Shown: positions 37,907-51,074 of the stretch, one piece after another | Position numbering within the stretch: the first letter of the stretch is position 1 | Layout: each line of letters begins with the position of its first letter | Source of the DNA: a virus | Taxonomy: Duplodnaviria > Caudoviricetes | DNA length: 64,000 bases | Direction: 5' to 3' (one strand) | IMG/VR virus record: IMGVR_UViG_3300035208_008180 | The notes under the pieces: model-generated | The model's database searches: none | Told to the model about the DNA's origin: nothing | The model's input: only the letters and a program-made list of their open reading frames with translations | Translations under genes and position numbers: made by a program

Positions 37907-38227
37907 TTACACTTTAAAGGATAGCTCGCTGCCTGGACTCGCTTCATCGATCTCTATAACCCTATAATTACATATGCCCGAGACCAAATAGCCTATTACA
38001 GCTTGTTGTCGGCTATCAAGTTGTCTTTTCAAATCAGCAATGTCATCCAACATTTGGTCAGGACAGTCTCCAAAATCAGCAAACTCTTCCGCCATTTGAA
38101 CCACTAAATCAATGCATTTCTTATATGGTTTTGGACCTTTTTTACAAGGTGTTTTGATTGCTGTTTTTTTCTTTGGTGTTTTTTTCACTGATGTTTTTTT
38201 ATTCATAATTTTCCTTATTTTTAACAT
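37907..38227 (-). CDS. Hypothetical protein
   Basis: Lys-rich N-terminus; ORF in operon. Confidence 0.6.
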   Translation of the reverse strand: MLKIRKIMNKKTSVKKTPKKKTAIKTPCKKGPKPYKKCIDLVVQMAEEFADFGDCPDQMLDDIADLKRQLDSRQQAVIGYLVSGICNYRVIEIDEASPGSELSFKV

Positions 38228-38667
38228 GCATATTCTCCTGTGAAAAAATCTGCCTCCCTTCCAAAGAGAGCCATCATTTTTTCATTCACTTCTTTAAGCT
38301 CATCTAATCGATTCACAGCAGCCCTTTTGCCGCCTCGTCCTTTTAGATTATTACCTATATAGACACCATCACCCAAATCCGTTTCAGAATACAACACCCA
38401 ACCAAGCTCATTGAGTTTTTCTTCTCTTTCTTCATAGTCGGGGGCTTTGTGTCCACGTACTGTGCGATACGACTTTACGCCACACTCAGGACAGAATTTC
38501 ATATTGCCCCGATTAAATTCATGTTTGCAATTGGGCACCTGTGTGTCGGGTTCTGGTTTGAAATCGGGAAACAAAACTTTGGTTAACTCATCCCAAGTAG
38601 TTTGCACCCCAAAAATAGAAAAAGAACTGCTACTGCTGTTAGACACAAATCCCAAACGAACTTTCAT
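38221..38667 (-). CDS. FVSNSS-family protein 5 with Zn-ribbon insert
   Basis: MKVRLGFVSNSSSSSF; CKH...FCPECG. Confidence 0.8.
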   Translation of the reverse strand: MKVRLGFVSNSSSSSFSIFGVQTTWDELTKVLFPDFKPEPDTQVPNCKHEFNRGNMKFCPECGVKSYRTVRGHKAPDYEEREEKLNELGWVLYSETDLGDGVYIGNNLKGRGGKRAAVNRLDELKEVNEKMMALFGREADFFTGEYAC

Positions 38668-38676
38668 GGTTTTCTC

Positions 38677-38883
38677 CTAATGGTCAGATAATTCGTGCCA
38701 AGGCACCCAATTGTCGGGTACTTCTACTGGTTCTCTAAACTGATAATTGTGTTGCTCACCATCTTCCTGAGCAGATTCCTTTGTGTCGAAAGGCCCTCTG
38801 GGAATCCAATTATGGTCACATCTAAAATACCAGTAAACCCATTTCATAGAGCCTCTTATACCATAAAGTTTATGATTGTGCAA
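38677..38883 (-). CDS. Hypothetical protein
   Basis: Small ORF with RGPFDTKE motif. Confidence 0.5.
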   Translation of the reverse strand: MHNHKLYGIRGSMKWVYWYFRCDHNWIPRGPFDTKESAQEDGEQHNYQFREPVEVPDNWVPWHELSDH

Positions 38884-38910
38884 GGTATATAGAAATAGGA
38901 GGACAAAACA

Positions 38911-39105
38911 ATGTTAGCATTACTTTGTGTTATTGTGGGGGCTTTTCTTTTAGGCAAAGCATTTGCCAAGAAGAATAATCAAGAAAAGGGTATTGTCGTT
39001 ATTTTGGGCGGAACTCTTTTACTAATCTACTTTTTCCCTGGGATTGCACTATTGATTCTGGGATTAGTATTATTGTCGTTCTTTGGGGTGAGTTTTGGAT
39101 TTTAA
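38911..39105 (+). CDS. Small membrane protein
   Basis: AGGAGG Shine-Dalgarno site; hydrophobic. Confidence 0.6.
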   Translation: MLALLCVIVGAFLLGKAFAKKNNQEKGIVVILGGTLLLIYFFPGIALLILGLVLLSFFGVSFGF

Positions 39106-39309
39106 AGTTACAATAATAGCTCCTAAATTCCAATCATTTTCCACCGCATAAGAAAAATTATGTCGATCTAGCACATCTTTGACTAATTGCTGCATTATTG
39201 GGCTGTTGCCCGTTATTATCCGAGCAGGCAGATTTTTGAGAAAAACAAAATTCTCAACCAATCTGTCTACTTGATGATGCCTAACACTATGTAGGTCTAA
39301 TTCATCCAT
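39070..39309 (-). CDS. Stand-alone Smr-domain-like protein
   Basis: LDLHSVR...IITGNS...N.GAIIV; start moved to 39309 because the upstream part is a tRNA. Confidence 0.7.
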   Translation of the reverse strand: MDELDLHSVRHHQVDRLVENFVFLKNLPARIITGNSPIMQQLVKDVLDRHNFSYAVENDWNLGAIIVTLKSKTHPKERQ

Positions 39310-39311
39310 AG

Positions 39312-39401
39312 CGGAGACTAAAGGAATCGAACCTTCACCGGGGTTTAAGCCGGGCTTGTTTTCGAAACAAGTGCGACAAAGCCAATATTCGCCTAATCTC
39401 C
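39312..39401 (-). tRNA. tRNA-Ser(CGA)
   Basis: Cloverleaf, CTTGT-TTCGAAA-ACAAG, long variable arm, G73. Confidence 0.9.
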
Positions 39402-39839
39402 ATTTTTTGTCAATTCGTTCCAAGAACCAATTCTTTTCCAATGAACACTGCCTTTGGAAAGTTTATTGAAAAACGCCTGTGTTATACAAACCTCACAATT
39501 TTGTATAAACATCTCTCCTTCTTCTGCTTTTAAAGGATCGTTCCATCTATTTCCATCAAACAGAGCTATTAGAACAAAAGTCTCACTGGCCACCTGTGCC
39601 AGTATCCAATAGCCATGTTCATTATGAAATATATCACCACTTTTATACATCATTGGTGGTAATCTACAGAGCGTTGGTTTGCCCAAGGGAATTTCAGCAC
39701 AGGGATTTTGCACTTTGGATCGAACCTTTGGTTCCAATGGAATTTCACTGTAATAGTCCCAATTACGATTCTGTCCATATTGTTCTTCCAACCACTTATT
39801 ATAGCATTCTTCGTCTTCAATGTATGGATTGGAATACAT
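39393..39839 (-). CDS. Hypothetical protein
   Basis: 148-aa ORF. Confidence 0.6.
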   Translation of the reverse strand: MYSNPYIEDEECYNKWLEEQYGQNRNWDYYSEIPLEPKVRSKVQNPCAEIPLGKPTLCRLPPMMYKSGDIFHNEHGYWILAQVASETFVLIALFDGNRWNDPLKAEEGEMFIQNCEVCITQAFFNKLSKGSVHWKRIGSWNELTKNGD

Positions 39840-39841
39840 GC

Positions 39842-40405
39842 TTATTTTTTCACAAATGAGAAACCAGCAAGGTCTTCATTTTGGCTTTCTCTGTCTTGGT
39901 CGAAACCATGAAAAAGATGATCCAATATTGCTTTGCTGTCTACCAATCCACAATGCTTGTAATGTACCACTTTCTCTCCACCATGTCGCACCACAACAAT
40001 TATTGCTTTGATTCTAATGAGCCAATCTACCACATGCTTATAAAGCAATGCATCCATTCCCTTATCTGTCATTTCTTCTATTGTTAGTAATTCGTATTCC
40101 TTATAATAACCACGAGGGGTTATGATAAAACCACAACGATCAGGACGGAGGTTGGCTGCTAATTTCTTGTTTCGTAGCCATGTGCATTTATAATCTCTGC
40201 ACAACTGGGGACGGGTTTCATAACAATCACAACCCCCACCCTCTCTTATGTATGCACACATTGCTTTTGCAGGTTTGTCCCCTTGTTCAAAAAGAAAACA
40301 ACAGGCATAACAATCACCACAACTATGTGGACGATCTCGAAATAATTGCTGCTTTTTATTCCGCTCAGCAGCTTTCTTTTTCTTTTTTTCTAGCTTTTTA
40401 TTCAT
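39842..40405 (-). CDS. YkgJ-like Cys-cluster (CxxCxxCC) protein
   Basis: CGDCYACC...C..YETRPQLCRDY.C; start moved out of the tRNA. Confidence 0.7.
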   Translation of the reverse strand: MNKKLEKKKKKAAERNKKQQLFRDRPHSCGDCYACCFLFEQGDKPAKAMCAYIREGGGCDCYETRPQLCRDYKCTWLRNKKLAANLRPDRCGFIITPRGYYKEYELLTIEEMTDKGMDALLYKHVVDWLIRIKAIIVVVRHGGEKVVHYKHCGLVDSKAILDHLFHGFDQDRESQNEDLAGFSFVKK

Positions 40406-40407
40406 AG

Positions 40408-40490
40408 TGCCCAGGACAGGAGTCGAACCTGCACGGGATTGCTCCCGCCAGCCCCTCAAGCTGGTGCGGCTGCCATTTCGCCACCTGGGC
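40408..40490 (-). tRNA. tRNA-Leu(GAG), long variable arm
   Basis: CCAGC-TTGAGGG-GCTGG; GTTCGAC T-loop. Confidence 0.92.
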
Positions 40491-41111
40491 TTACAAATGT
40501 TGCTTATCTATCCAACCCCTGCTTTTTCTTCCTTTGCCACGATTTCTTCCAGCGAAGGTAGGCAATTGCATATCGCAGTTACCACAAACCAACCTTACAT
40601 TTTCTAATCTATGGTCTTCGGGATCGCCGTTGATGTGATCCAAAATAAGCGGGATAGGTTTTCCCATCCATTCGCTATTATTGCAGATTTCACATTGCCT
40701 TCCTCTAGTTTCAGCTAAATACTTTTTCGCCATGCTCGGATTATATCCGTAACCACAATTGGTTGGCAACAAAGCATTACTACTCTCGATCAATTCCTTC
40801 TTTTTCTTCCATTTCGATTCATTATTGCAGGCGTAGGAACAGTATTTTTTGTTCGTGGTTAAAGAGCCACAATTTAAACACTTGCAAAGTACCGGGCTTT
40901 GGGTGTTCCTCGCCACTCCTTTGTTGTTGAAGCTTGCCGAACAGCCACTACTACAGAAGTCATTCCTTCTTTTCTCATACGCTATTGTGAGTCCACAATT
41001 TTTACATAATTTAGGCTTCAGCAAGTACCGATCAAGGCATCTTTTGTGCTTTTCTCGCTGATAATGTCTGTTTTTTAATCCGCCTAATCTTCCACATTCG
41101 CTTTTATTCAT
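40491..41111 (-). CDS. HNH homing endonuclease
   Basis: CEIC...LDHINGD...NVRLVCGNCD; abuts a tRNA. Confidence 0.8.
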   Translation of the reverse strand: MNKSECGRLGGLKNRHYQREKHKRCLDRYLLKPKLCKNCGLTIAYEKRRNDFCSSGCSASFNNKGVARNTQSPVLCKCLNCGSLTTNKKYCSYACNNESKWKKKKELIESSNALLPTNCGYGYNPSMAKKYLAETRGRQCEICNNSEWMGKPIPLILDHINGDPEDHRLENVRLVCGNCDMQLPTFAGRNRGKGRKSRGWIDKQHL

Positions 41112-41191
41112 TGCTACCTCTGTTTCTTGAAAATAATTATAAGATTATATAGTAATCCTACATTCATTTTTCGAGAAACAAATTTGGCAAG

Positions 41192-41263
41192 AGCTACTTA
41201 TTGGAATTACACCAATGCCTTCGCATTACGAGTGCGATATACTGCTGACTATACGAAAGTAGC
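41192..41263 (-). tRNA. tRNA-Thr(CGT), atypical T-loop
   Basis: GCTACTT/AAGTAGC acceptor; TCGCA-CTCGTAA-TGCGA; T-loop TGTAATT. Confidence 0.8.
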
Positions 41264-41268
41264 ATAAG

Positions 41269-41354
41269 CGGAAGGTGTGGGAGTCGAACCCACAAGGCTT
41301 TTTACACTCGTCCGCTTTCCAAGCGGGTGCCGTCGCCAATCGGCTAGACCTTCC
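41269..41354 (-). tRNA. tRNA-Ser(GGA)
   Basis: CCGC-TTGGAAA-GCGG; long variable arm; G73. Confidence 0.9.
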
Positions 41355-41661
41355 TTTTAAACAACTCTGGATTTTCTGCTACAATGCGTTTTGTTTCTTC
41401 GTGACGCAACCGCCAATCCTCTTCTTCCTGGGCCATATCACGAATCAACTGCCCAGTAGCCAGAAATTTGTCCACACAATCATCACAGATGCCGAAAATA
41501 AATCGTTCTAAATCATGTCTCGACCCATAGCCAGCCATGAAACCATCCACGTTAGCATCATCCCAGCAACTGCTTTGCGGCGTGCCATCCGACGTTTCGG
41601 GGTAGGGTTGCAATTGCTTGCAACAGCCTATACAGAGGATTTTAACATCTTTTGCCTTCAT
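41344..41661 (-). CDS. Hypothetical Zn-binding protein
   Basis: CIGC...ICDDC; start at MKAKD. Confidence 0.6.
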   Translation of the reverse strand: MKAKDVKILCIGCCKQLQPYPETSDGTPQSSCWDDANVDGFMAGYGSRHDLERFIFGICDDCVDKFLATGQLIRDMAQEEEDWRLRHEETKRIVAENPELFKRKV

Positions 41662-41673
41662 TACAATCTCCAG

Positions 41674-41756
41674 CGGAAGCGACAGGATTCGAACCTGCAA
41701 CCCGTCTTAGGGGCAACGGTTTTCAAGACCGCCCGCTAACCATTCGCCTCGCTTCC
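41674..41756 (-). tRNA. tRNA-Ser(TGA)
   Basis: GCGGT-CTTGAAA-ACCGT; G73. Confidence 0.9.
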
Positions 41757-42022
41757 TAATGAGCCTCAAATCCCTTCTTCTCAATATCCTGTTTAATTTG
41801 TTCTATTACCTTAGTTCTGTTCACATAAGATTGGATCACGTATTGTCTGCCACTTGATGTAGTCAATTCGTTTGTTTCCTCATCAAAAACTTTAGGTGTA
41901 GAAACAAACACCGATTTTCCATCTTCAAAATTAGGATGCCCATAGACTTGCCCAGATAGCCTCCAAACATCCATCCCACAACCTAATTCCATTTCGTATT
42001 TTGCATTTTCTAATATAACCAT
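41756..42022 (-). CDS. Hypothetical phage protein
   Basis: LSGQVYGHPNFEDG...TSSGRQY. Confidence 0.7.
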   Translation of the reverse strand: MVILENAKYEMELGCGMDVWRLSGQVYGHPNFEDGKSVFVSTPKVFDEETNELTTSSGRQYVIQSYVNRTKVIEQIKQDIEKKGFEAH

Positions 42023-42447
42023 TAAAAATTTCCTTCTGTCATGGCTTTGACAAATGCTTTTGCCATCACCATCCCGCCAGTTGTGGGAACAAATCTCGCA
42101 ATTGGTGAATAAAAATCAGGATTGTTGGAAAAATGTGGATCAATACTACCTTGTGCCAATAAATCCGCCACTGTTCCCTCAGCATAGACCAAGATTTTTA
42201 CACCCTCAAAGTTTGTGCAATCAGGATATTTAATCCTGACAATCAAAAATTCTCCAATTTGTTCCGAATATAAAATCTCAAAATTCTTTGGATTAGGATT
42301 CGGAAATTTCTTTTTTGCCTTCCTCCTCCCCTGTGTTTGCACCTGACAAGTCTCTGGTGATTGCTGCTGGTTACAATTGCAATATACAACCGTTGGCTTA
42401 TCGTATGAAGAAGAACTGCCACCAAAACCAAGTCCCATGATTAGCAT
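42022..42447 (-). CDS. Hypothetical phage protein
   Basis: PNPNP.NF, YPDCTNFEG.KILVY, IDPHF. Confidence 0.7.
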   Translation of the reverse strand: MLIMGLGFGGSSSSYDKPTVVYCNCNQQQSPETCQVQTQGRRKAKKKFPNPNPKNFEILYSEQIGEFLIVRIKYPDCTNFEGVKILVYAEGTVADLLAQGSIDPHFSNNPDFYSPIARFVPTTGGMVMAKAFVKAMTEGNF

Positions 42448-43865
42448 GCCTCCTTTTGTAATTTAGCATCCCTGCGAGCTTTCTTTAATCTATTCGAACA
42501 ACTTACAGAGCAGGTTTCGTGAGTTGCTTTGCGTTTGGTGTACACTTTTTTACACACCAAACAACGAGCCGTTTTTTTTGCCACTGAAGCTTTGAAACAT
42601 TCTTGGCTGCAAAATCTTGATTGGGCTTTTGTTCTTGCATGAAACTTTTGACGACAAAATTCACAACAGTAAATTGGCCACGATTGTTTTCGACATTCTT
42701 CACTGCAATACTTGGCACCATTTGATTGTTTGGAAAGAATCTTAAATATATTGCCACAAATTTTGCATTTCTTTTTTGTCAAAAGTCCTTTTGCCGATGC
42801 CTCTACATTCTCTTTCTTTAACTGTTGGATTTTATAATAATCAGTGTTCCAACACTTTTTACTGCAATACATTTGTGTGGCATAATTTACGCCAAATTCT
42901 TTTTTGCAACAAATGCAAATTCTTTTGTTTTTTCCACGTTTTCTGTGTTTTTCTGCCCACCAAGCATTACAACATTTTTTTGAGCAAAATAATGAAATAT
43001 AGGATTTTGGCTTAAATATATTCCCACAATTCTTGCAGGGACGTGGATTCAGCAGTTCTGGGAACTTTCGCCTCACCAAGCTTTTGCATTTTACACTACA
43101 ATATATCTTTCTAGAGGTTGGTACATCAAACACGTTTCCACAAATACATATCCTGCGTTGCTCTAGCCACCGCAACACTTTTTTCAAACGTATGCGAATT
43201 GCTTCTTTGGTTAGTCCTAATTCATCGCCTATCTCTTTAAGGGTCATTCTGCGACCCTTCAAACCGTAATATCGAAAAAGGACATCTCTGTATTTTTTAG
43301 GTATTTGTTTACGACGCACTAAAGACAACACTTCGTCAACCTGTTTTGCAACTTCGCTTTGTTGTCCTCTGTTAATATTATCAATTGGCTCTAAGGTTTT
43401 GTCTTCTTCAATACAACAACTAAAAGACCCAACAGTTTTTACTTTATTTATTTGTTGAAGAAGGGCTTCGTCTTTTGAAGATATTTCTTCTTTATCTTGA
43501 GATAGCCGAAATGCTCTTTTGTTTGCCCATTGCGGGATATAAATAATTTTTTTCTGAGCACGGGCATCATTTATAGCATGTTCAACCGCTGTGCTGACAT
43601 AAGTTGACAGCTTTGCTGTGATTCCATCCCAATGATCTACAGCACGACATATGGCTATGCTGGCTTCTGTTAAAAACTCATCATCTATTTCTTTGCCCTT
43701 ACAGGCGTCTCTTACTTTGCTAAACGCTAGACGCAAACAAGATTCGATGAGCTTGTGTCTTGCTTCTTGGTTGCCTGCCTTTGCTTTTGGAAGCAATTCC
43801 AAACACTCTTGATGACTTAGTATTTTGACATGTTTTAAATCATTTAAATAAGCATCAATATCCAC
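42441..43865 (-). CDS. Sigma70-family RNA polymerase sigma factor fused to six CxxC..CSxxC Zn-binding repeats
   Basis: YLND...LS..E, ARHKLIESCLRL, RAVDHWD...LSTY, MTLKEIGDELGLTKEAIR; GTG start at 43865. Confidence 0.85.
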   Translation of the reverse strand: MDIDAYLNDLKHVKILSHQECLELLPKAKAGNQEARHKLIESCLRLAFSKVRDACKGKEIDDEFLTEASIAICRAVDHWDGITAKLSTYVSTAVEHAINDARAQKKIIYIPQWANKRAFRLSQDKEEISSKDEALLQQINKVKTVGSFSCCIEEDKTLEPIDNINRGQQSEVAKQVDEVLSLVRRKQIPKKYRDVLFRYYGLKGRRMTLKEIGDELGLTKEAIRIRLKKVLRWLEQRRICICGNVFDVPTSRKIYCSVKCKSLVRRKFPELLNPRPCKNCGNIFKPKSYISLFCSKKCCNAWWAEKHRKRGKNKRICICCKKEFGVNYATQMYCSKKCWNTDYYKIQQLKKENVEASAKGLLTKKKCKICGNIFKILSKQSNGAKYCSEECRKQSWPIYCCEFCRQKFHARTKAQSRFCSQECFKASVAKKTARCLVCKKVYTKRKATHETCSVSCSNRLKKARRDAKLQKEAC

Positions 43866-43900
43866 AATAAACTTCCTTGTGTTTGTATCATCTTGCAGAG

Positions 43901-43976
43901 TAGCACCAGGGGGATTCGAACCCACCACTACCCAGTGTTTAAAACTGGTGACTTCTGCCAATTGGTCTATGGTGCC
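43901..43976 (-). tRNA. tRNA-Leu(TAA), short variable region
   Basis: CCAGT-TTTAAAC-ACTGG; 76 nt; A73. Confidence 0.85.
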
Positions 43977-43981
43977 ATGAG

Positions 43982-44055
43982 TAGCGAGGAGGGGATTCGA
44001 ACCCCTACTGTCTGGTTCCTAAGACCAGTGCCGCTGCCAATTGGGCTACCTCGCC
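43982..44055 (-). tRNA. tRNA-Leu(TAG), short variable region
   Basis: CTGGT-CTTAGGA-ACCAG; variable region ACAGT. Confidence 0.88.
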
Positions 44056-44057
44056 AT

Positions 44058-44375
44058 TTATGATTGTTCTATATCCTGAACATCAACTCTTTTCCTAAGT
44101 TCTTTGAAAATTTCGTGTGCAGCTTCTTTTCCAGTTGTTGCAGCATCAAGCTTCTTTATCAATTCTGTTGTGCCTAATTTCCACACAGCATATTCTTCAT
44201 CGGTTTCACAGAGTATTAAATTCAGTTTACCAAACCGAACTACAGTCGAATGAGGATTGTCAGACAACCTTCGTAACGATTGTGCTGTTCCTGTGTTGAC
44301 TCGGATAACAAGGTCTACATCTGAGTTTGCGTTTGGCTTGCCGTAAGCTCTACTGCCCGTAATAAATGCGTTCAT
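44058..44375 (-). CDS. Minimal nucleotidyltransferase (MNT, pol-beta superfamily)
   Basis: ITGSRAYG.....SDVDL. Confidence 0.8.
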   Translation of the reverse strand: MNAFITGSRAYGKPNANSDVDLVIRVNTGTAQSLRRLSDNPHSTVVRFGKLNLILCETDEEYAVWKLGTTELIKKLDAATTGKEAAHEIFKELRKRVDVQDIEQS

Positions 44376-44650
44376 TTTTTTACCTTGTCATCGTTCACTG
44401 GCCAATGCTTTCTGCCTTCTGAAACATGCTCTAATGCTTCTCGGATTATTTCAGGTGATTCCTCAATCTCAACAAAAGCCCACCCTGGCGGGCAATTGCC
44501 TACATTTTTCTTGGGAGATACCATCACCCCCAAGTGTTCGCCACAAGTTGCTAGCCCGCCACCAATCGATTTGAGAAATTCCGCATAACTGAGATTATCT
44601 GGAACTTCCAAATCATTCCCATGTTCATCCTTGCGACCAATGACTTTCAT
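44372..44650 (-). CDS. Hypothetical protein
   Basis: GGAG Shine-Dalgarno site + MKVIG start. Confidence 0.6.
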   Translation of the reverse strand: MKVIGRKDEHGNDLEVPDNLSYAEFLKSIGGGLATCGEHLGVMVSPKKNVGNCPPGWAFVEIEESPEIIREALEHVSEGRKHWPVNDDKVKK

Positions 44651-44662
44651 TTTTTCTCCAAG

Positions 44663-44748
44663 CGGAAACGGAGGGAGTCGAACCCCCAAGGCTTTTTACA
44701 CTCATCTGTTTTCAGAACAGGTTTCGTCACCAATCGATTTGCGTTTCC
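44663..44748 (-). tRNA. tRNA-Ser(TGA), atypical (C33)
   Basis: Ser-type body similar to Ser(GGA); loop TCTGAAA. Confidence 0.75.
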
Positions 44749-44753
44749 GAAAG

Positions 44754-44827
44754 TAGCACCAGAAGGATTCGAACCTTCACTGAACAGTGTTTGAAACTGT
44801 TGCCGCTGCCAATTGGGCTATGGTGCC
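44754..44827 (-). tRNA. tRNA-Leu(CAA), short variable region
   Basis: ACAGT-TTCAAAC-ACTGT; variable region TCAGT. Confidence 0.88.
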
Positions 44828-44832
44828 ATAAG

Positions 44833-44906
44833 TAGCATCGGTGGGATTCGAACCCACAACCTCTACATTTTGAGTGTAGCGACTCTGCCAGTTGGTCTAC
44901 GATGCC
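44833..44906 (-). tRNA. tRNA-Leu(CAA), short variable region
   Basis: CTACA-CTCAAAA-TGTAG; variable region AGGTT. Confidence 0.88.
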
Positions 44907-44912
44907 AAAATA

Positions 44913-45608
44913 TCAAACAACCCCTAGTTGTGTCAGGATTGTCGCATGTTGCTCAGTCATGGTTGTCAGTTGTGTATTGAGGGATGCAAGTGATGCTTCC
45001 AAATCCGACTTCTCTGCCAGTATTACAGCATGCTGTTCTGTCAAGACTGCTAATTGTGCATTTAAAGATTCAAGAGATGCTTCCAAATCTGCTTTTTCTA
45101 TCAACAGTTCTTCCGCTGGTGTTTCTCCACTTGCATCAATGCCCGCATTTACAACCACCAGTCTTTCAGTCTTTGTTAGTATGTCAGCATTTATCAGGTC
45201 AATAGATGCTCCACTTGCATCAACGCTCGCACTTACAACTGCCAGTCTTTCAGTATTTGTTTGTATGCCAGGATTTATCGCATTTATTGCGGCAACAAGT
45301 TGTCGCAATTGATATTCTAATGAAAACAGTAATGCCATGCCCCCAACAACTTGAGCAGCTAAAGGGTGAGTATAAACCAATTCCCAAATATTATCAAAAA
45401 ATTCAACTTTGTCCTGATCTGCACCCGGATATAGTTGTTTTGTGGTGTAATTGTAGGGTCTAAAAACAATTGTCAATGGTTGTTTTGTAGCATCAACGTT
45501 TATCGTTTGCACGTTAAATGCCACAATATAAAGCTCGTTATACACAGCCTCAACAGTGGCAGGAACTATTAGTGGGCTTGGATTAGGAATCAGAGGTAAA
45601 TCAGCCAT
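44913..45608 (-). CDS. Hypothetical protein with internally duplicated coiled coil
   Basis: TERL.VV.A..DASG x2; EK.DLEASL.SLN.QL...TEQHA.IL x2. Confidence 0.7.
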   Translation of the reverse strand: MADLPLIPNPSPLIVPATVEAVYNELYIVAFNVQTINVDATKQPLTIVFRPYNYTTKQLYPGADQDKVEFFDNIWELVYTHPLAAQVVGGMALLFSLEYQLRQLVAAINAINPGIQTNTERLAVVSASVDASGASIDLINADILTKTERLVVVNAGIDASGETPAEELLIEKADLEASLESLNAQLAVLTEQHAVILAEKSDLEASLASLNTQLTTMTEQHATILTQLGVV

Positions 45609-45622
45609 ATTTTTTCCTTTGT

Positions 45623-45844
45623 TTAATTCAAATGTACTGTACCACGACCTTTGGTGGTTCTTACGATTTTTGTTATACCATCTTTTTCAACTTTTACAAT
45701 ACGAAGTGGATCACTTGGATACAAAGAGTCAAATGCGTCTACATAACCATCGCAATAAGCTCTTGTTTTATGCTCTATAAAAGATACTTTACGCCATCCA
45801 AGATCGCCACTGTTTCTCTCTACGTAATACATTTTTTTCTCCAA
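45623..45844 (-). CDS. Hypothetical protein
   Basis: ORF between tRNAs. Confidence 0.55.
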   Translation of the reverse strand: MEKKMYYVERNSGDLGWRKVSFIEHKTRAYCDGYVDAFDSLYPSDPLRIVKVEKDGITKIVRTTKGRGTVHLN

Positions 45845-45845
45845 G

Positions 45846-45920
45846 TGCCACGAGCGAGATTCGAACTCGCACTGTCTAGTATCTCGGACTAGCGACTCCT
45901 ACCAATTGGTCTACCGTGGC
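45846..45920 (-). tRNA. tRNA-Leu(GAG), short variable region, C33
   Basis: CTAGT-CCGAGAT-ACTAG. Confidence 0.8.
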
Positions 45921-46104
45921 GTACATCACATATAATGATCTTGATCTTTTTCTCGCCAATATTCATCCTCTTTTTGCCGATACTCAGCATACTCTGCGTT
46001 TGTATAGTATTGATACGATCCACAGGCACACGGATTACAATTACATATTCTGCATACTGCTGCATTATCTATATCATTCATTATTATTTCTCGGGTGTGT
46101 AAAG

Positions 46105-46178
46105 TAGCGAGGAGGGGATTCGAACCCCTACTGGATAGTTCCTGAAACTATTGCCGCTGCCAATTGGGCTACCTCGCC
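46105..46178 (-). tRNA. tRNA-Leu(CAG), short variable region
   Basis: ATAGT-TTCAGGA-ACTAT; body nearly identical to Leu(TAG) at 43982. Confidence 0.88.
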
Positions 46179-46184
46179 ATAAAG

Positions 46185-46262
46185 TGGCTGTGGCGGGTCT
46201 CGAAGCCGCAAAACATCACAAAGTTCTGGACTTTGCCGCTTTTCCGATTTGCGTACACAGCC
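46185..46262 (-). tRNA. Atypical tRNA, anticodon CAG (Leu), possibly degenerate
   Basis: GGCTGTG/CACAGCC acceptor; CAAAG-TCCAGAA-CTTTG; T-stem mismatch. Confidence 0.6.
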
Positions 46263-46267
46263 ATAAG

Positions 46268-46350
46268 TGCCCAAGGAGGGACTTGAACCCTCAAGAGATT
46301 TCTCTCGCCAGATTTTGAGTCTGGTGCGGTTGCCATTTCGCCACCTGGGC
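46268..46350 (-). tRNA. tRNA-Leu(CAA), long variable arm
   Basis: CCAGA-CTCAAAA-TCTGG. Confidence 0.92.
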
Positions 46351-46355
46351 ATAAG

Positions 46356-46427
46356 TGGAGCAGGTGGGTATCGCACCCACGTCTACAGCTTTTCAGACTG
46401 TCACTAATCTACCTCAGTTACTGCTCC
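46356..46427 (-). tRNA. tRNA-Phe(GAA), atypical T-loop
   Basis: ACAGT-CTGAAAA-GCTGT; T-loop TGCGATA. Confidence 0.8.
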
Positions 46428-46432
46428 ATAAG

Positions 46433-46505
46433 TGGTAGGGGTCGGAGTCGAACCGACACTTCCACGTTTTCAGCGTGGCACTCAGACCAGCTAAGTTACC
46501 CTACC
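46433..46505 (-). tRNA. tRNA-Phe(GAA)
   Basis: CCACG-CTGAAAA-CGTGG. Confidence 0.9.
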
Positions 46506-46956
46506 TCATTCCATCATGTATTTCTCTATGACAATTACTACAAACAAGCACACATTTTTTTACTTCTTCGATAAGTTTGTCCCAACGTGCTAACATTCCT
46601 TTGCTGGAAAATCCAAAACTTTTTTCTTGTTTTTCATCCATGTTTTTGTGATGAAACTCAAGAGCCTTCATACAACGATTATACCCACATTCTGAACAAG
46701 CACCGCCACACATTTTGACTAATTCAATCTTTCTGTTCTTTCTGGCTTTTCTTTGCCATTTTTTATATTTTTCATTATCACGCTTTCTTTTTTCTTCAGT
46801 TGTTAGCGGGATATGTTGAATTTCTAGTTTTTTTGTGTTGCCACAACCAAAAGGCGAACATTCAAGGCAATATTTGCGATTGTGCAGGTTTCTTATTTTT
46901 CCATCTATTTTAAGTTTTGATGGGAACTTTTTTTTACATAATTTACATAATGGCAT
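46501..46956 (-). CDS. HNH endonuclease
   Basis: CSECGY...LEFHH...KCVLVCSNCHREIH. Confidence 0.8.
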   Translation of the reverse strand: MPLCKLCKKKFPSKLKIDGKIRNLHNRKYCLECSPFGCGNTKKLEIQHIPLTTEEKRKRDNEKYKKWQRKARKNRKIELVKMCGGACSECGYNRCMKALEFHHKNMDEKQEKSFGFSSKGMLARWDKLIEEVKKCVLVCSNCHREIHDGMR

Positions 46957-47030
46957 AGTTTTTCTCCTATGCTATTATGTAGTAAAGTAGTATCAAAAAA
47001 TCCAACTTTTTTAGGCTACTTTTTCCTCAG

Positions 47031-47123
47031 TGGGAAGTGACGGAATCGAACCGCTCAAAGTCATACCACCCCAAATTCTTTAACGACTAACAGATTTACA
47101 GTCTGCCTTGGGGAACACCTCCC
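47031..47123 (-). tRNA. D-armless tRNA-Tyr(GTA)-like RNA with extended variable arm
   Basis: GGGAGGT/ACTTCCC-A acceptor, GCAGA-CTGTAAA-TCTGT, TTCGATT T-loop; only 10 nt in place of the D-arm. Confidence 0.75.
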
Positions 47124-47127
47124 ATTT

Positions 47128-47284
47128 TGGTTCTCAGTGTGTTATTACACCAAAGGCAAGAGCGACAATACACACTCTTTGCGACACCCAGTATTGTTCT
47201 TTCCAGGTGATTGCTTTTCGCCACGCAGCTAACGCTACCACTCTTTAAATGCTGGACACTCCTAATCCCACATCCTGAGAACCA
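47128..47284 (-). ncRNA. Unknown structured RNA inside the tRNA array
   Basis: Terminal inverted repeat TTGGTTCTCAG/CTGAGAACCAA; spaced like a tRNA between two tRNA-Tyr genes. Confidence 0.55.
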
Positions 47285-47286
47285 AG

Positions 47287-47368
47287 TGTGCCGAGCCGGA
47301 ATTGAACCGACAAGTCCCGAAGGAGTCTCGTTTACAGCGAGGTGGGCCTGCCAATGCCCAATCGACAC
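47287..47368 (-). tRNA. tRNA-Tyr(GTA)
   Basis: CTCG-CTGTAAA-CGAG; variable arm TCC-TTCG-GGA. Confidence 0.88.
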
Positions 47369-47370
47369 AT

Positions 47371-47733
47371 TTATTTTTCTTTCAAGTAACCTTTTTCCTG
47401 TGCGTGTTTGTCACATAGGGTTTTAACCCAACCATTTTTGTTCGTGTGCCTACATCCTTGTTCACCACAAACTTCGCAAATATGATATGAATCTCTTTCT
47501 GCCTGTTCAATTAAATTTAGAACAGAATGAACATCCCCGCCACCAGTGTCAATTGAGTAGTAGAACCTAAGTCCTCCAAATTTTTCTTTTATTTGCAGAA
47601 CTTTTAAATCCACCTTATTGGCACGAATCGCCGTAAACAATCGATCTACAAGATCATTCCAACCTTCCGCTATGGCAATTTCCACATAGCCTGTTGCTGG
47701 GAAAAACTCAGGATATTTTTCCTTGAAATTCAT
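47371..47733 (-). CDS. Conserved hypothetical phage protein
   Basis: QIKEKFGGLRFY...ICEVCG...TLC. Confidence 0.7.
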   Translation of the reverse strand: MNFKEKYPEFFPATGYVEIAIAEGWNDLVDRLFTAIRANKVDLKVLQIKEKFGGLRFYYSIDTGGGDVHSVLNLIEQAERDSYHICEVCGEQGCRHTNKNGWVKTLCDKHAQEKGYLKEK

Positions 47734-48044
47734 TTCTTTTTACCAAAAATTTTCTTGTGGGCTTGCATGTATTTGTTTGTTCTCTCTGCCCAATCTTTTA
47801 TGATTGCTTCAATTTTATTTTGTGAAACCCTTGTTCCAATCAACGCATCCGTTCCCTTGTATTGGCCAGCATAACGATGGTGTTTCGTAAGCATATTTGC
47901 TAGTTCATCTGCCAAAAGTGTAGCATCATCCAAATCCTCTCTACAACCAGCCGCCTCTATTTTACCATTAGTATGAACCGCATAAGCATAATAAAGTGGC
48001 GGGCATTGTTTATCAACATACACTTGTGGGTTCCAACGGGGCAT
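47730..48044 (-). CDS. Hypothetical protein
   Basis: 104-aa ORF. Confidence 0.6.
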   Translation of the reverse strand: MPRWNPQVYVDKQCPPLYYAYAVHTNGKIEAAGCREDLDDATLLADELANMLTKHHRYAGQYKGTDALIGTRVSQNKIEAIIKDWAERTNKYMQAHKKIFGKKK

Positions 48045-48047
48045 TTT

Positions 48048-48365
48048 CTATTCCTGTATTTGCTTGATAACCATGAAATGTTGTTTTTTGCCGATTCGAA
48101 TTATTCCCCATCCTGGCCAAATGAATTTAACCAGCGATTCAGGATCGGTTACTTTTTCGCCATTCCAAGACAAAGAACCTTCTTTAACTTTGCGTCTAAC
48201 TTCACTGATGCTTGGTAAGGCACCGCCATCAACACAAATCTGTGCTATTTTTCCATCCTGCACTGTTTTAGGACGCATCCACCACCACATGCTGGCAAAT
48301 GTTTCTTGACAAACAGCCTTGGGCTTGTTTAGTATTTCCCATAATTCATCAAATGTCAACATCAT
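48048..48365 (-). CDS. Stand-alone S4-like RNA-binding protein resembling the TyrRS C-terminal domain
   Basis: PSISEVRRKVKEGSLSWNGEKVTD...IIRIGKKQHF. Confidence 0.75.
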   Translation of the reverse strand: MMLTFDELWEILNKPKAVCQETFASMWWWMRPKTVQDGKIAQICVDGGALPSISEVRRKVKEGSLSWNGEKVTDPESLVKFIWPGWGIIRIGKKQHFMVIKQIQE

Positions 48366-48379
48366 AATTTCTCCAAAAG

Positions 48380-48468
48380 CGGAAGTGACTAGAATCGAAC
48401 TAGCACTGGCTTTGACACCAGAACGGTTTAGCAAACCGCCGCAACAAACCAATATTTGCCTCACTTCC
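48380..48468 (-). tRNA. tRNA-Ser(GCT)
   Basis: GCGGT-TTGCTAA-ACCGT; G73. Confidence 0.9.
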
Positions 48469-48482
48469 GAAGGCGTTTTTCA

Positions 48483-48495
48483 ATTGTCAAAGAAC
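48483..48495 (-). promoter_or_regulatory. boxA-like antitermination element
   Basis: GTTCTTTGACAAT right after the first tRNA of the locus. Confidence 0.45.
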
Positions 48496-48503
48496 TCTCA
48501 CAG

Positions 48504-48587
48504 TGGTCTCGGCGGGAGTCGAACCCGCACGGGCATTACACCCAGGAGATTTTAAGTCTCCATTGTCTACCATTCCAACACGAGACC
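48504..48587 (-). tRNA. tRNA-Leu(TAA), long variable arm
   Basis: GGAGA-CTTAAAA-TCTCC. Confidence 0.92.
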
Positions 48588-48613
48588 GTTCATAATATTC
48601 CTGCGGCCAAACA

Positions 48614-49084
48614 TTATCCATTTTTTATTTTTGCCCAGTTTACAAACTGTTCAAAGACCCATTGCATGGTGCCTTTGCTCACAAGTTCTGTTTGTTTACC
48701 CTCATCAGTTTGCCTAAATTCCTCCACATCTTTTTCCAACCTTTCAAGATAATCTTTTTTCATTCCTTCCAACATCATTGGCAGCACAATTTCATCCATC
48801 ATCAAGCCACCAGGGCTTTCATCCCATTCGACTTTATCCATTGGAACGCCGATTTTTTCCAAAAAGGCTTCCATATCAAAGTTATCCATCCATGTTTCGC
48901 CGCCAATCATTTCATCATTACTGCGAATCGTCCAGGCATCTTCCTCAGCCCAAGACATACCCATTTCTTTTCCAATAATTGCGTGGTCTGCAATCTTGCC
49001 TATTTGATCTTCGGACAAATATTTTTTTAGGATAGCGAAGCTTGAGCTTGAGCTATTGGACACAAATGTAGTTCTTATTTTCAT
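48614..49084 (-). CDS. FVSNSS-family protein 6; first gene after the attenuator
   Basis: MKIRTTFVSNSSSSSF; GAGGTG Shine-Dalgarno site. Confidence 0.8.
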   Translation of the reverse strand: MKIRTTFVSNSSSSSFAILKKYLSEDQIGKIADHAIIGKEMGMSWAEEDAWTIRSNDEMIGGETWMDNFDMEAFLEKIGVPMDKVEWDESPGGLMMDEIVLPMMLEGMKKDYLERLEKDVEEFRQTDEGKQTELVSKGTMQWVFEQFVNWAKIKNG

Positions 49085-49124
49085 ATTTCACCTCATGCAC
49101 ACATTATATCATATTTCAGGCAAT

Positions 49125-49160
49125 AAAAAAAGCCCGCTGACGGTTGACCGCCAGCGGGCT
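49125..49160 (-). terminator. Intrinsic terminator of the putative attenuator
   Basis: AGCCCGCTGGCGG-TCAA-CCGTCAGCGGGCT-TTTTTT. Confidence 0.9.
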
Positions 49161-49178
49161 TTTTGAAATGATCCTAGA

Positions 49179-49259
49179 TCAGCCCAGGGCGGTCCATACG
49201 CTCGTAAATAAATACGAGAGTGACAAGAGACTGCTCAGACTGGAATAGGACTTTTTCAT
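49179..49259 (-). CDS. Putative attenuator leader peptide MKKSYSSLSSLLSLSYLFTSVWTALG
   Basis: 26 codons; codons 4-20 are all Ser/Leu/Tyr/Phe/Thr; 3' end GACCGCCCTGGGCT is complementary to the terminator 5' arm. Confidence 0.85.
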   Translation of the reverse strand: MKKSYSSLSSLLSLSYLFTSVWTALG

Positions 49260-49310
49260 TTGTTCTCAACCTTATATACGCTTCTCGCAACAATTCTGTT
49301 CAACATCCCT

Positions 49311-49339
49311 ATTATACTTCAGTTTTTTTGAATTGTAAA
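49311..49339 (-). promoter_or_regulatory. Sigma70-type promoter of the leader/tRNA locus
   Basis: TTTACA-N17-TATAAT. Confidence 0.75.
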
Positions 49340-49351
49340 GAGGGAAAACAG

Positions 49352-49391
49352 AAAAATTTCACCCGCCCCCATTTATAGGGGGCAGATGAAA
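49352..49391 (-). terminator. Terminator-like hairpin insulating the tRNA-locus promoter
   Basis: TTTCATCTGCCCCC...GGGGGCGGGTGAAA followed by a T-run on the minus strand. Confidence 0.55.
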
Positions 49392-49402
49392 TCAGATCGG
49401 TA

Positions 49403-49984
49403 TTATTTACCGCAACCGCACCCGCCATCGCAATTGGCTTTACGGTATGGAGGCAAAACAGCCTTTACGGCCTTGCCTGCGACTTTTACAGATTTACGCA
49501 CTGGTTGAGCCGCAACAACGGCTTTCACCGGACCAGCAACGGCTGCACAAGCTGCCGGGGCACAAGCCTTGACAGGGGCACAAGCTGCTGGAGTATTTTC
49601 GCAACAACGTCTTCCCAAAAGCGGTCGCTCCACTCTTACTCGAACGACTCGGACTTTTTGGGTGGCAACAGGAGCACACGCTGCTACTGGGGCACACGCT
49701 GCTGGAGCACACGCCTTTGGTGTACAAGTCTTCGGGGTACGTACTTTTTTCACCCGAACAACTTCCTTCACTACCACTCTCTGACAAACCGCTGGGGCAC
49801 ACGCCTTGACGGCTTCACAAGCCTTAGGGGTAACCACCACCGGAGCGACTGGCGTACAAGCTGCTGGGGCACATGCCTTGACAGGCTCACAAGCCCCGCC
49901 AGTCCTGACTCTTGATGCCTGTGCAACCGAGCACATAGCAACCAAAGCCACAACACAAACTAAAGCGATAAAACGCTTCATCAC
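49403..49984 (-). CDS. Secreted Cys/Ala/Pro-rich repeat protein
   Basis: Signal peptide (VAQA), (ACAPA/ACEPVK)n repeats; AAGGAGG Shine-Dalgarno site. Confidence 0.75.
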   Translation of the reverse strand: MMKRFIALVCVVALVAMCSVAQASRVRTGGACEPVKACAPAACTPVAPVVVTPKACEAVKACAPAVCQRVVVKEVVRVKKVRTPKTCTPKACAPAACAPVAACAPVATQKVRVVRVRVERPLLGRRCCENTPAACAPVKACAPAACAAVAGPVKAVVAAQPVRKSVKVAGKAVKAVLPPYRKANCDGGCGCGK

Positions 49985-50021
49985 ACACCTCCTTGGTTAA
50001 AGGGTTTCTCAAACAGAAAAT

Positions 50022-50324
50022 CTATTCTAACATACTCTTCTTCTTTTGTCTACCCCGCTTTTCAGATTTTTGACCGACTTTTTGGAATCTTGCGGCATAA
50101 TCTCTTAGCCCAATTTCCTTAAAAACTGTCAATTTCCACCTTTGTTTACATTCGGGGCACCTACGACGCAACACACAAGCTATCTTATCGAGAGGAATTT
50201 GTTTCAATCCCGCTCCACAGCCACAATAAAGTGTGAGACCTTTTCCCTCTTTGAAGGCTTCGGCCAACGTTTCGTTTTGATGTGTGAATGCGTGTTGTAA
50301 CATAATATATGCTTCCTGAATCAA
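50022..50324 (-). CDS. Hypothetical Zn-ribbon protein
   Basis: CGC...CPEC. Confidence 0.55.
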   Translation of the reverse strand: MIQEAYIMLQHAFTHQNETLAEAFKEGKGLTLYCGCGAGLKQIPLDKIACVLRRRCPECKQRWKLTVFKEIGLRDYAARFQKVGQKSEKRGRQKKKSMLE

Positions 50325-50327
50325 TTT

Positions 50328-51074
50328 TTAGCGAACGTATGGCGGGTCTTCTGCCACTATCTGAGACTGCGGTTTAGTCTTTTTTTCCGGCTTTGGCGGC
50401 ACTTGCAGATTTATTTCAATGCCGTGGAAAATCCAATCGGAAATCCAGTTGTAGAAACCAGCAGTCCAACGTTGCAACCTTGCATAGAAGCCCATAATGA
50501 AGCCACTGCAAAGCCACCAGAACATGCTGGGAATCCACCAGAACATATCACGGGTAATATCGACTTTGAAATCCCGTGCTCGCAATTTAATGCGTGGAGT
50601 ATATGTGCGGTCGGATCGATCACCATAGGTGCCATCACAATCACACCATCGATATTTACCACGCATATCGGAGCGATTGCATAAGTATTCCAACCAGTCC
50701 CTCATTTTTTCAGGTGGTGGAACCTTCAAATTCGTGTCAAGATGATTCATTTCTAGCCAATTGGCCAACAAATCTTGATATGCATGTTTGCGACTAAAAC
50801 AACGGATGATCCAGTGAATCGTTGCCCATACTACACCGCAAGCAACAAATTCAAGCACATGCCAGAGCACGTTGTAGGGATGCTCTATGGACCAAGACAC
50901 CACATCCTTGCCGTTTCCGAAAAAATAAACCAAGGCACAGAAACCGGCCAACAGAATGGTGGCTACAAAGCCTTTTTCCCAATCGACTGCCCACACAATA
51001 AAACCAAACACGACGGCAGTCAAAATCCAAAAGATTGGATTAGTGACTATCAATAAAGTCCACACAGCTTCCAT
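50328..51074 (-). CDS. Membrane protein
   Basis: Several TM segments. Confidence 0.7.
   Translation of the reverse strand: MEAVWTLLIVTNPIFWILTAVVFGFIVWAVDWEKGFVATILLAGFCALVYFFGNGKDVVSWSIEHPYNVLWHVLEFVACGVVWATIHWIIRCFSRKHAYQDLLANWLEMNHLDTNLKVPPPEKMRDWLEYLCNRSDMRGKYRWCDCDGTYGDRSDRTYTPRIKLRARDFKVDITRDMFWWIPSMFWWLCSGFIMGFYARLQRWTAGFYNWISDWIFHGIEINLQVPPKPEKKTKPQSQIVAEDPPYVR

Follow-up and report, generated by a model that had tools for sequence, protein, structure and literature searches.

The 64,000-nt window analysed here lies within contig C200 and carries on its minus strand a short open reading frame (ORF), designated leader 3, which stands between a promoter and a strong terminator upstream of a cluster of transfer RNA (tRNA) genes. 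Contig C200 is 340,072 bp long and has a GC content of 40.5%, and seven of the ten longest contigs of its assembly are near 70% GC; C200 is read as a jumbo phage genome that was binned together with a bacterium. ARAGORN detected 65 tRNA genes on C200 with the default setting and 74 with a relaxed threshold, giving about 70 overall. All of them are encoded on the minus strand, and most belong to one of three clusters, in which they are grouped by amino acid. The features of the locus and of the clusters are listed in Table 1.

Table 1. Features of the leader 3 unit, the tRNA clusters and the other leaders. Positions refer to the window unless another sequence is named.
Feature	Position	Strand	Description
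Window	G000:C200:192001-256000		64,000 nt, within contig C200
tRNA cluster 1	C200 13-38 kb	-	Ile(tat), Thr, Arg, Gly, Glu, Val, Asn, Asp, Ala, Pro
tRNA cluster 2	C200 70-76 kb	-	Met, Ile(gat), Lys, Gln, Cys, Trp, His
tRNA cluster 3	C200 231-241 kb = window 39311-48587	-	Leu, Ser, Phe, Tyr, Thr(cgt)
Promoter	49311..49339	-	-35 TTTACA 49339-49334, -10 TATAAT 49316-49311, N17 spacer
5' untranslated leader	49260..49304	-	Weak ribosome-binding site: AAGG 49273-49270, GAGAA 49267-49263
Leader ORF (leader 3)	49179..49259	-	ATG at 49259, 26 codons and TGA 49181-49179
Regulatory block	49200..49250	-	Codons 4-20: 17 consecutive Ser/Leu/Tyr/Phe/Thr codons, 12 distinct triplets
1:2 hairpin over the ORF	49164..49258	-	Core CTCGTA 49218-49213 pairs with TACGAG 49206-49201; forms without a ribosome
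Segment 2 (antiterminator 5' strand)	49181..49194	-	Last leader codons; GACCGCC/TGGGCT pairs with AGCCCG/GGCGGTC of the terminator 5' arm
Intrinsic terminator	49125..49160	-	5' arm 49160-49148 (segment 3), loop 49147-49144, 3' arm 49143-49131, T7 run to 49125
Possible internal promoter, extended -10 TGATATAAT	49103..49111	-	Just below the terminator, TATAAT 49108-49103; not part of the switch
First gene below the attenuator	48614..49084	-	156-aa protein, function without assignment; family recurs near phage tRNA genes
boxA-like 14-mer GTTCTTTGACAATT (GWTCTTTGACAATT)	48482..48495	-	Directly after the first tRNA of cluster 3
Leader 2	L015:5798-5863	-	22 codons; after two tRNA-Met genes, before the rest of cluster 2 (Ile/Lys/Gln/Cys/Trp/His)
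Leader 1	L016:5582-5683	-	34 codons; before cluster 1 (Gly/Thr/Arg/Pro/Ala/Glu/Ile(ATA)/Val/Asp/Asn)
Leaders of LR745206.1 (L114-L117)	342380-342472, 365029-365112, 387700-387813, 406703-406795	+	One before each of four tRNA arrays

The promoter of leader 3 is the best-scoring in the region and belongs to a highly conserved phage promoter class, TTTACA-N11-13-GRAGTATAAT, of which 21 copies were found on C200, on the minus strand only (e.g., at 241311, 216250, 78746 and 38971). The consensus of the class is roughly GTTTACAA-N10-TTCTGAAGTATAAT, and a start codon lies ~7-10 nt downstream of many copies. Most copies are located directly 5' of genes and three or four precede non-coding RNAs; the copy in front of leader 3 is the sole member of the class between cluster 3 and the next gene block upstream. 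Transcription from it would start near position 49304. The GAGAACAAATG context of the leader 3 ribosome-binding site also precedes a long ORF behind the promoter at C200 267178. The terminator has a 13-bp GC-rich stem (-25.2 kcal/mol) and is the strongest terminator-like hairpin found on C200.

An initial annotation, made from the letters of the window alone, had already described most of this anatomy. The promoter is present, with 11 of 12 consensus matches, and so are the leader ORF of 26 codons with its TGA stop, the strong terminator with its T-run, and the complementarity between the last leader codons (49194-49181) and the terminator 5' arm. The counts given for codons 4-20 (17 codons, 12 triplets) hold as well, and the TATAAT pointed out at ~49103-49108 as a possible internal promoter is real and lies in an extended -10 element. 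The hallmarks of an attenuator found for leader 3 are thus a short ORF with a start codon and a ribosome-binding site between promoter and terminator, codons matched to the genes downstream, an intrinsic terminator, and an antiterminator exclusive with it.

Cluster 3 contains 19 tRNA genes (10 Leu, 5 Ser, 2 Phe, 1 Tyr and 1 Thr-cgt), interleaved with HNH (homing) endonuclease genes and one sigma-factor gene. With default settings ARAGORN reported 17 of the tRNA genes, and the relaxed threshold as well as Rfam added Thr(cgt) and a second Ser(tga). The initial annotation had counted 20 downstream tRNAs; the bulk of that count stands, with 19 detected with confidence, and the twentieth was not confidently found. 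It could correspond to a weak match to the selenocysteine-tRNA model RF01852 at 47032-47123 on the minus strand (24.6 bits, E = 0.35), where no anticodon was read, and which might be a second Tyr tRNA.

Two further observations were made within cluster 3. Seven of the 10 tRNAs with Leu anticodons (window 43900-46262, minus strand) are just 75-79 nt long and do not have the long variable arm expected of bacterial tRNA-Leu. These short tRNAs form one paralogous family with anticodons TAA, TAG, CAA, GAG and CAG. In addition, sigma-70 regions 2 and 4 (residues ~40-267) and HNH-endonuclease-like repeats (residues ~270-500) share one open frame at 42441-43961 (minus strand).

Codon match and predicted folding of the three leaders

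C200 was scanned blindly for intrinsic terminators preceded by short ORFs, and the sequence was also read directly. A short ORF with a terminator was found at clusters 1 and 2 also. From codon 7 on, leader 1 encodes only Gly, Thr, Arg, Pro, Ala, Glu, Ile, Val, Asp and Asn, and codons 3-17 of leader 2 encode only Lys, Gln, Trp, His, Cys and Ile. The three units, one per cluster, together span all amino acids but Met.

The leader codons readable by the tRNAs of each cluster were counted under standard wobble rules, and the resulting leader-by-cluster matrix is diagonal. The tRNAs of its own cluster can read 18 of the 25 codons of leader 3 (other clusters, 4 and 3), 15 of the 21 codons of leader 2 (3 and 3) and 27 of the 33 codons of leader 1 (1 and 3). 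Seen from the side of the tRNAs, a codon is present in the cognate leader for 12 of 12 anticodon types of cluster 3, 8 of 8 of cluster 2 and 19 of 22 of cluster 1. For leader 3, the initial annotation had given 11 of 12 anticodon types; the match is borne out, and the figure itself is replaced by 12 of 12 with wobble or 9 of 12 with strict Watson-Crick pairing.

The rarity of such codon runs was assessed by a six-frame scan of the whole 340 kb. Leader 1 outranks every other stretch of cluster-1 codons, with 18 codons against 15 for the runner-up, and leader 2 does so for cluster-2 codons (15 against 9). For cluster 3, leader 3 is the longest non-repeat run (17, with one tie), the longer ones being simple Ser repeats only. 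With a background of 0.28 per codon for cluster-3 codons, ~3e-4 chance runs of 17 are estimated. Furthermore, two amino acids are divided between clusters, and the leaders are divided in the same way: of the Thr codons, leader 3 uses ACG, and its cluster encodes Thr(cgt), while leader 1 uses ACA/ACC and its cluster encodes Thr(tgt, ggt); of the Ile codons, ATA is found in leader 1, whose cluster has Ile(tat), and ATT in leader 2, whose cluster has Ile(gat). In both cases the leaders track the anticodon.

At the level of amino acids, the evidence for a leader-cluster match is overwhelming. The proposal that the phage samples each isoacceptor is supported at that level by the diagonal matrix. 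At the codon level it finds modest support: when synonymous codons were resampled, the isoacceptor coverage gave P = 0.036 for leader 3, 0.49 for leader 2 and 0.046 for leader 1, which is no more than suggestive of one codon per isoacceptor being sampled in a leader.

The folding of each transcript up to the terminator loop was simulated with the ribosome footprint masked codon by codon. The whole leader 3 transcript folds with -67.5 kcal/mol (z = -5.5). Without a ribosome, the model places the ORF within a long hairpin and predicts a free terminator 5' arm (0.18 paired upstream). A stall at any of codons 1-18 yields the antiterminator (5' arm paired 0.50-0.66), and a ribosome at codon 19 to the stop codon blocks the antiterminator and leaves the arm free (0.00-0.35). 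The permissive stall window of leader 3 nearly matches its regulatory block (codons 4-20). Leader 1 has an extra hairpin pair, as in the his leader; stalls at codons 1-31 give the antiterminator (0.80), and with the ribosome at codon 32 to the stop an intermediate strand is freed and captures the antiterminator strand, so that the terminator arm is free (0.04-0.28). Leader 2 can form four consecutive, mutually exclusive helices of -16.7, -19.9, -18.9 and -20.3 kcal/mol. In these models, ribosome position is predicted to select the helix in the expected direction in leaders 3 and 1. The outcome agrees with the trp/his-type geometry and mutually exclusive antiterminator put forward for leader 3: a ribosome on the late codons frees the terminator arm, and earlier stalls give the antiterminator.

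The antiterminator duplex of leader 3 comprises 13 bp with -19.5 kcal/mol (z = -2.9), an energy reached by 4 of 500 shuffles. Upstream complementarity (70 nt) to the 5' arm was compared among 59 terminator-like sites on C200, and the terminators of the leaders rank 1, 4 and 5 (1, 2 and 3 per nucleotide). Across seven leaders, the antiterminator pairing gave z = -2.1 to -4.0 against dinucleotide shuffles.

Recurrence of the leaders and neighbouring elements

Relatives were reached through homologues of the proteins that adjoin the leaders, and only readable contigs were compared; some homologue contigs were unusable, having another gene context or being too short. In L008 and L009, which encode a 156-aa protein 77% identical to that below leader 3, the contigs begin exactly at the leader 3 ATG. 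The leader differs there at three codons, of which one lies in the block (codon 20, Ser to Lys), and it can still pair as the antiterminator. In the more distant L010-L013 (156-aa protein 50% identical), leader 3 is kept, each substitution in the block either leaves the residue unchanged or replaces it with another of the five amino acids, and the downstream tRNAs again include Thr(cgt). The terminator stem of these loci differs in sequence, and the 3' end of the leader is altered to match it, with 13 bp of complementarity in a shifted register; for L010 the antiterminator pairing has z = -4.0 against shuffles.

Leaders 2 and 1 recur likewise. Leader 2 is kept in L100, a contig of a metagenome-assembled genome (MAG) from NCBI with an adjoining protein 54% identical, where it lies between tRNA-Met and tRNA-Ile(gat) with its helix chain retained. 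Its terminator is directly followed by tRNAs (Ile, Lys, Gln, Trp and His), with no ORF between. Leader 1 is kept in L101 and L102 (adjoining protein 74% identical), with a changed residue order and some new codons, including AGG; from the Gly codon on, the block contains cluster-1 amino acids only. All three leaders thus recur in diverged relatives with amino-acid set and complementarity kept. That both are preserved despite sequence change is as expected if selection acts on codon membership and RNA pairing rather than on the function of a peptide.

Other searches for relatives gave little. A BLAST search of the region and of the adjoining protein against 50,697 phage records returned no close relatives, protein and pattern scans of IMG/VR gave no matches or chance matches only, and the leader-3 core, scanned against the GTDB genomes, gave a single chance match, located in a Taishania MAG inside a coding gene and away from any tRNAs. 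For the first ORF below leader 2, the protein search returned no relative but itself.

The same design was sought in other phages by a generic scan for a short ORF, a terminator and downstream tRNAs over C200 and ~100 loci. The three C200 leaders ranked first and their relatives next; a candidate in an unrelated metagenome contig, L085, was also obtained. The ORF of this candidate has 16 codons, of which codons 9-12 (Arg, Asp, Pro, Glu) correspond to the four tRNAs downstream, and in simulation the antiterminator arises only from stalls at codons 9-14.

A further case was reached via tRNA-level BLAST matches. LR745206.1 is an uncultured 635-kb phage with Bacteroidota-type promoter motifs and 61 tRNAs in four sorted arrays. 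A short ORF with a terminator stands before each of the four arrays, the second again after the first tRNA-Met, and all four terminators are followed by tRNAs within ~20-100 nt. Codons of the own array make up 12 of 30, 11 of 27, 28 of 37 and 9 of 30 codons of these leaders, against backgrounds of 0.21, 0.18, 0.40 and 0.09 (binomial P = 0.011, 0.005, 8e-6 and 9e-4). The 3' parts of leaders I-III pair with the terminator 5' arm, and I and III copy part of the 3' arm. The regulatory blocks end at, or at most two codons from, the last codon where a simulated stall gives the antiterminator. The four leaders share a conserved upstream module, consisting of a Bacteroidota-type promoter motif and a short hairpin before the ATG, and their first residues are alike (M, T/N/K, T, ...), a pattern suggestive of an origin of the LR745206.1 units by duplication. 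The arrays of Gordonia phage Sixama and Prevotella phage Lak-B1 mix all and most amino acids, respectively, and the codon-match test is therefore uninformative there. The design is present in at least three unrelated phage lineages (C200, LR745206.1 and L085), and this recurrence suggests a widespread element. Annotation pipelines miss such leaders because the ORFs have 16 to 38 codons.

Several elements adjoin the units. In the 156-aa protein encoded below leader 3, the N-terminal ~90 residues form a domain that is widespread and contains both a Ser-rich and an MDNFDM motif; the protein matched no Pfam or PHROG family. Its relatives are encoded in at least 112 metagenome stretches, some of which adjoin phage tRNA genes (loci L017-L096). 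The boxA-like 14-mer occurs in one copy per cluster below the attenuator (C200 38088-38101, 74246-74259 and 240495, the last being window 48495; all minus strand), also near a small tRNA group at 334 kb (C200 334614-334627, minus strand), and is kept in L101 at 2062-2075. We take it to resemble the boxA element of rrn operons. It is probably no promoter because no usable -10 box lies downstream, and it may be a processive antitermination signal for untranslated tRNA operons.

Upstream of leader 1, at C200 ~39277-39010 and 38971-38835 (minus strand), two consensus promoters each precede a structured non-coding stretch. A tRNA-like T-arm forms the end of the second of these stretches, and neither matched any Rfam family. 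Elsewhere on the contig, a phage transfer-messenger RNA gene with the tag peptide ANDYVALAA lies at C200 132589-132933 (minus strand) behind one consensus promoter.

Interpretation, alternatives and known systems

Given the anatomy of the unit, the codon statistics, the conservation and the in-silico folding, it is likely, with a probability that we put at roughly 0.85, that leader 3 belongs to a ribosome-mediated (leader-peptide) transcription attenuator that gates transcription from the phage promoter into tRNA cluster 3. According to this model, RNA polymerase would start near 49304 and transcribe the 26-codon leader, which would be translated as it emerges. If codons 4-20 are decoded fast, the ribosome would reach the end of the ORF and cover segment 2, the terminator would form and transcription would stop. 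If any Ser, Leu, Tyr, Phe or Thr codon is read slowly, presumably for want of its aminoacyl-tRNA, the ribosome would stall in the 5' half of the leader, which would break the 1:2 hairpin and leave segment 2 free. Free segment 2 could then pair with the terminator 5' arm as the antiterminator, and the polymerase would enter the tRNA genes. Since the tRNA products would relieve the stall, such a circuit would amount to end-product feedback on tRNA supply. Translation of the leader, the kinetics of decoding and the natural cause of its slowing are what we infer in this scheme. The phage thus probably makes a tRNA set only when the matching codons are read slowly. The initial annotation had proposed both an attenuator with codons of its own tRNA genes and expression only under depletion; the attenuator is supported by three units, their folds, their conservation and other lineages, while "only when", as a strict statement, is too strong with internal promoters possible.

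Several observations weigh against this interpretation. The ribosome-binding site of leader 3 is weak. Equilibrium folding of leader 2 showed no switch with ribosome position, and the case for leader 2 therefore rests on its four exclusive helices of similar strength and on the folding order. The codon-level support, as distinct from that for amino acids, is modest, and two codons of leader 1, CGT and GCC, are readable by no detected phage tRNA. The possible promoter at 49111-49103, further promoter-like sites within cluster 3 and a weaker terminator-like site at 44493-44478 indicate that the attenuator may control merely part of the tRNA output; the promoter-like site below the terminator differs in L008, and none is found at that place in L010. 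Finally, the best Rfam match to leader 3, RF00514 His_leader (full model), reaches 31.7 bits against a threshold of 49 and is largely terminator-driven.

The promoter-like sites below the terminator and inside cluster 3 could also be taken to mean that the attenuator chiefly controls protein genes, i.e., the 156-aa ORF, the HNH endonucleases and the sigma factor, with the tRNAs made from internal promoters. This would agree with the presence of an ORF (49084-48614) and not a tRNA directly below the leader 3 terminator. In L100, however, tRNA-Ile directly follows the homologous terminator with no ORF between, and tRNAs closely follow all four terminators of LR745206.1. The ORF below leader 2 has no other relatives in the protein search, yet the leader is kept in L100, and leader composition tracks the tRNA set, which makes control aimed at proteins improbable. 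Still less probable is a role of the short ORFs as genes for small peptides with a function of their own, each between an ordinary promoter and terminator, in which case the match to the clusters would be coincidental. The leader 3 peptide does have a basic N-terminus followed by a hydrophobic Ser/Leu-rich stretch, like a small membrane peptide, but the three peptides have mutually complementary compositions, each before the matching cluster, and leader 1 is reordered in a relative within the same amino-acid set, unlike the evolution of a functional peptide. Moreover, the antiterminator pairing overlaps the ORF ends, and the design recurs in unrelated phages. Attenuator-derived transcripts can act as small RNAs in other bacteria, and the stretch of ~185 nt from promoter to terminator, with its own promoter, strong terminator and good fold (z = -5.5), might be viewed as a stand-alone small RNA, or as a chance arrangement, with a spurious ORF. 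Against this, the substitutions in relatives preserve the reading frame and the amino-acid set, the genome-wide run statistics speak against chance, and no Rfam family reaches threshold; we regard this reading as the least probable of all.

A different question is what would trigger the switch. Phage tRNAs have been proposed as a replacement for host tRNAs cleaved in infection, and the natural trigger might be host immunity, in the form of tRNA-cleaving nucleases or phage-induced decay of host tRNAs. This would be a special case of the attenuator proposed here. It is consistent with the presence, in each leader, of a codon for nearly every isoacceptor of its own cluster, and with coverage somewhat above random synonymous choice in leaders 3 and 1, but leader 2 has no codon-level excess. 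The sequence gives no pointer to cleavage over uncharged tRNA or a simple shortage, the analysis linked no gene for defence or counter-defence to the unit, and a phage of 40% GC with ~70 tRNAs has an obvious supply problem without any defence. An immune trigger is thus doubtful as the specific cause. The unit alone cannot tell low tRNA abundance from cleavage or missing charging, and a supply-and-demand feedback is simpler than the anticodon-nuclease trigger suggested in the initial annotation and equally consistent with the data.

Among other roles, phage tRNA genes have been proposed to compensate for codon usage, to replace host tRNAs that have been degraded and to allow escape from immunity based on tRNA cleavage. 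Tentatively, codon-matched leaders could represent a general, undescribed control layer of tRNA-rich phages, in which arrays are sorted because each is wired to its own decoding-speed sensor and which would serve as an inducible counter-defence, resupplying the isoacceptor class depleted by an anticodon nuclease or by phage-driven tRNA decay. If the attenuator model is true, phage tRNA production would be demand-driven and feedback-controlled, the sorting of tRNAs by amino acid in some huge phages would be explained, and classical attenuation would be extended to a new product class, the tRNAs themselves. A working unit would also provide a compact, programmable sensor for the supply of chosen tRNAs.

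With respect to known families, no Rfam family reached threshold for the leader 3 unit (49050-49420 at E up to 10 and 38000-51000 at E up to 1), no T-box family was among the matches in these ranges, and leaders 1 and 2 matched no Rfam family. Thr_leader and Trp_leader scored 21.7 and 12.7 bits on the leader 3 unit; the His_leader score, being below threshold, denotes resemblance and not membership. To our knowledge, all described leader-peptide attenuators regulate amino-acid biosynthesis or synthetase genes. The genes behind leader 3 are of neither kind, comprising tRNA genes, HNH endonuclease genes and a sigma-factor gene. A search of the full-text literature found no paper describing leader-peptide attenuation of tRNA genes, in phages or elsewhere, and no report of sorted phage tRNA arrays behind codon-matched leaders, in agreement with the initial annotation, which knew of no such description for a phage tRNA array.

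The closest parallels are the thr leader (Thr and Ile codons) and the ilvGMEDA leader (Ile, Leu and Val codons), which are likewise multi-amino-acid leaders with 1:2, 2:3 and 3:4 helices and a terminator, and in which a stall favours the antiterminator. In contrast to these, the phage units regulate tRNA genes and not biosynthetic enzymes, leader 3 uses 12 triplets in 17 positions and not repeats of one or two codons, and one phage genome has three units that divide the genetic code between them. The hisL leader (RF00514) has a similar chain of exclusive helices, and the extra hairpin pair of leaders 1 and 2 is like its A:B / B:C / C:D / D:E / E:F series, but the phage leaders have no run of a single codon. 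The pheST attenuator of E. coli also governs a gene of the translation apparatus and senses the supply of charged tRNA-Phe; unlike the phage units, it regulates a synthetase, responds to one amino acid and resides on a bacterial chromosome. T-box riboswitches are tRNA-status attenuators with terminator and antiterminator alternatives too, but they bind uncharged tRNA directly via a specifier codon, without translation, and regulate synthetase and amino-acid genes. T5-like and huge phages likewise have tRNA arrays interleaved with HNH genes, the arrays being presumed to supplement or replace host tRNAs. Collectively, the mechanism is of the textbook kind, and what is new is the tRNA product, the sampling of multiple codons by one leader and the partitioning of the tRNA genes among several sensors.

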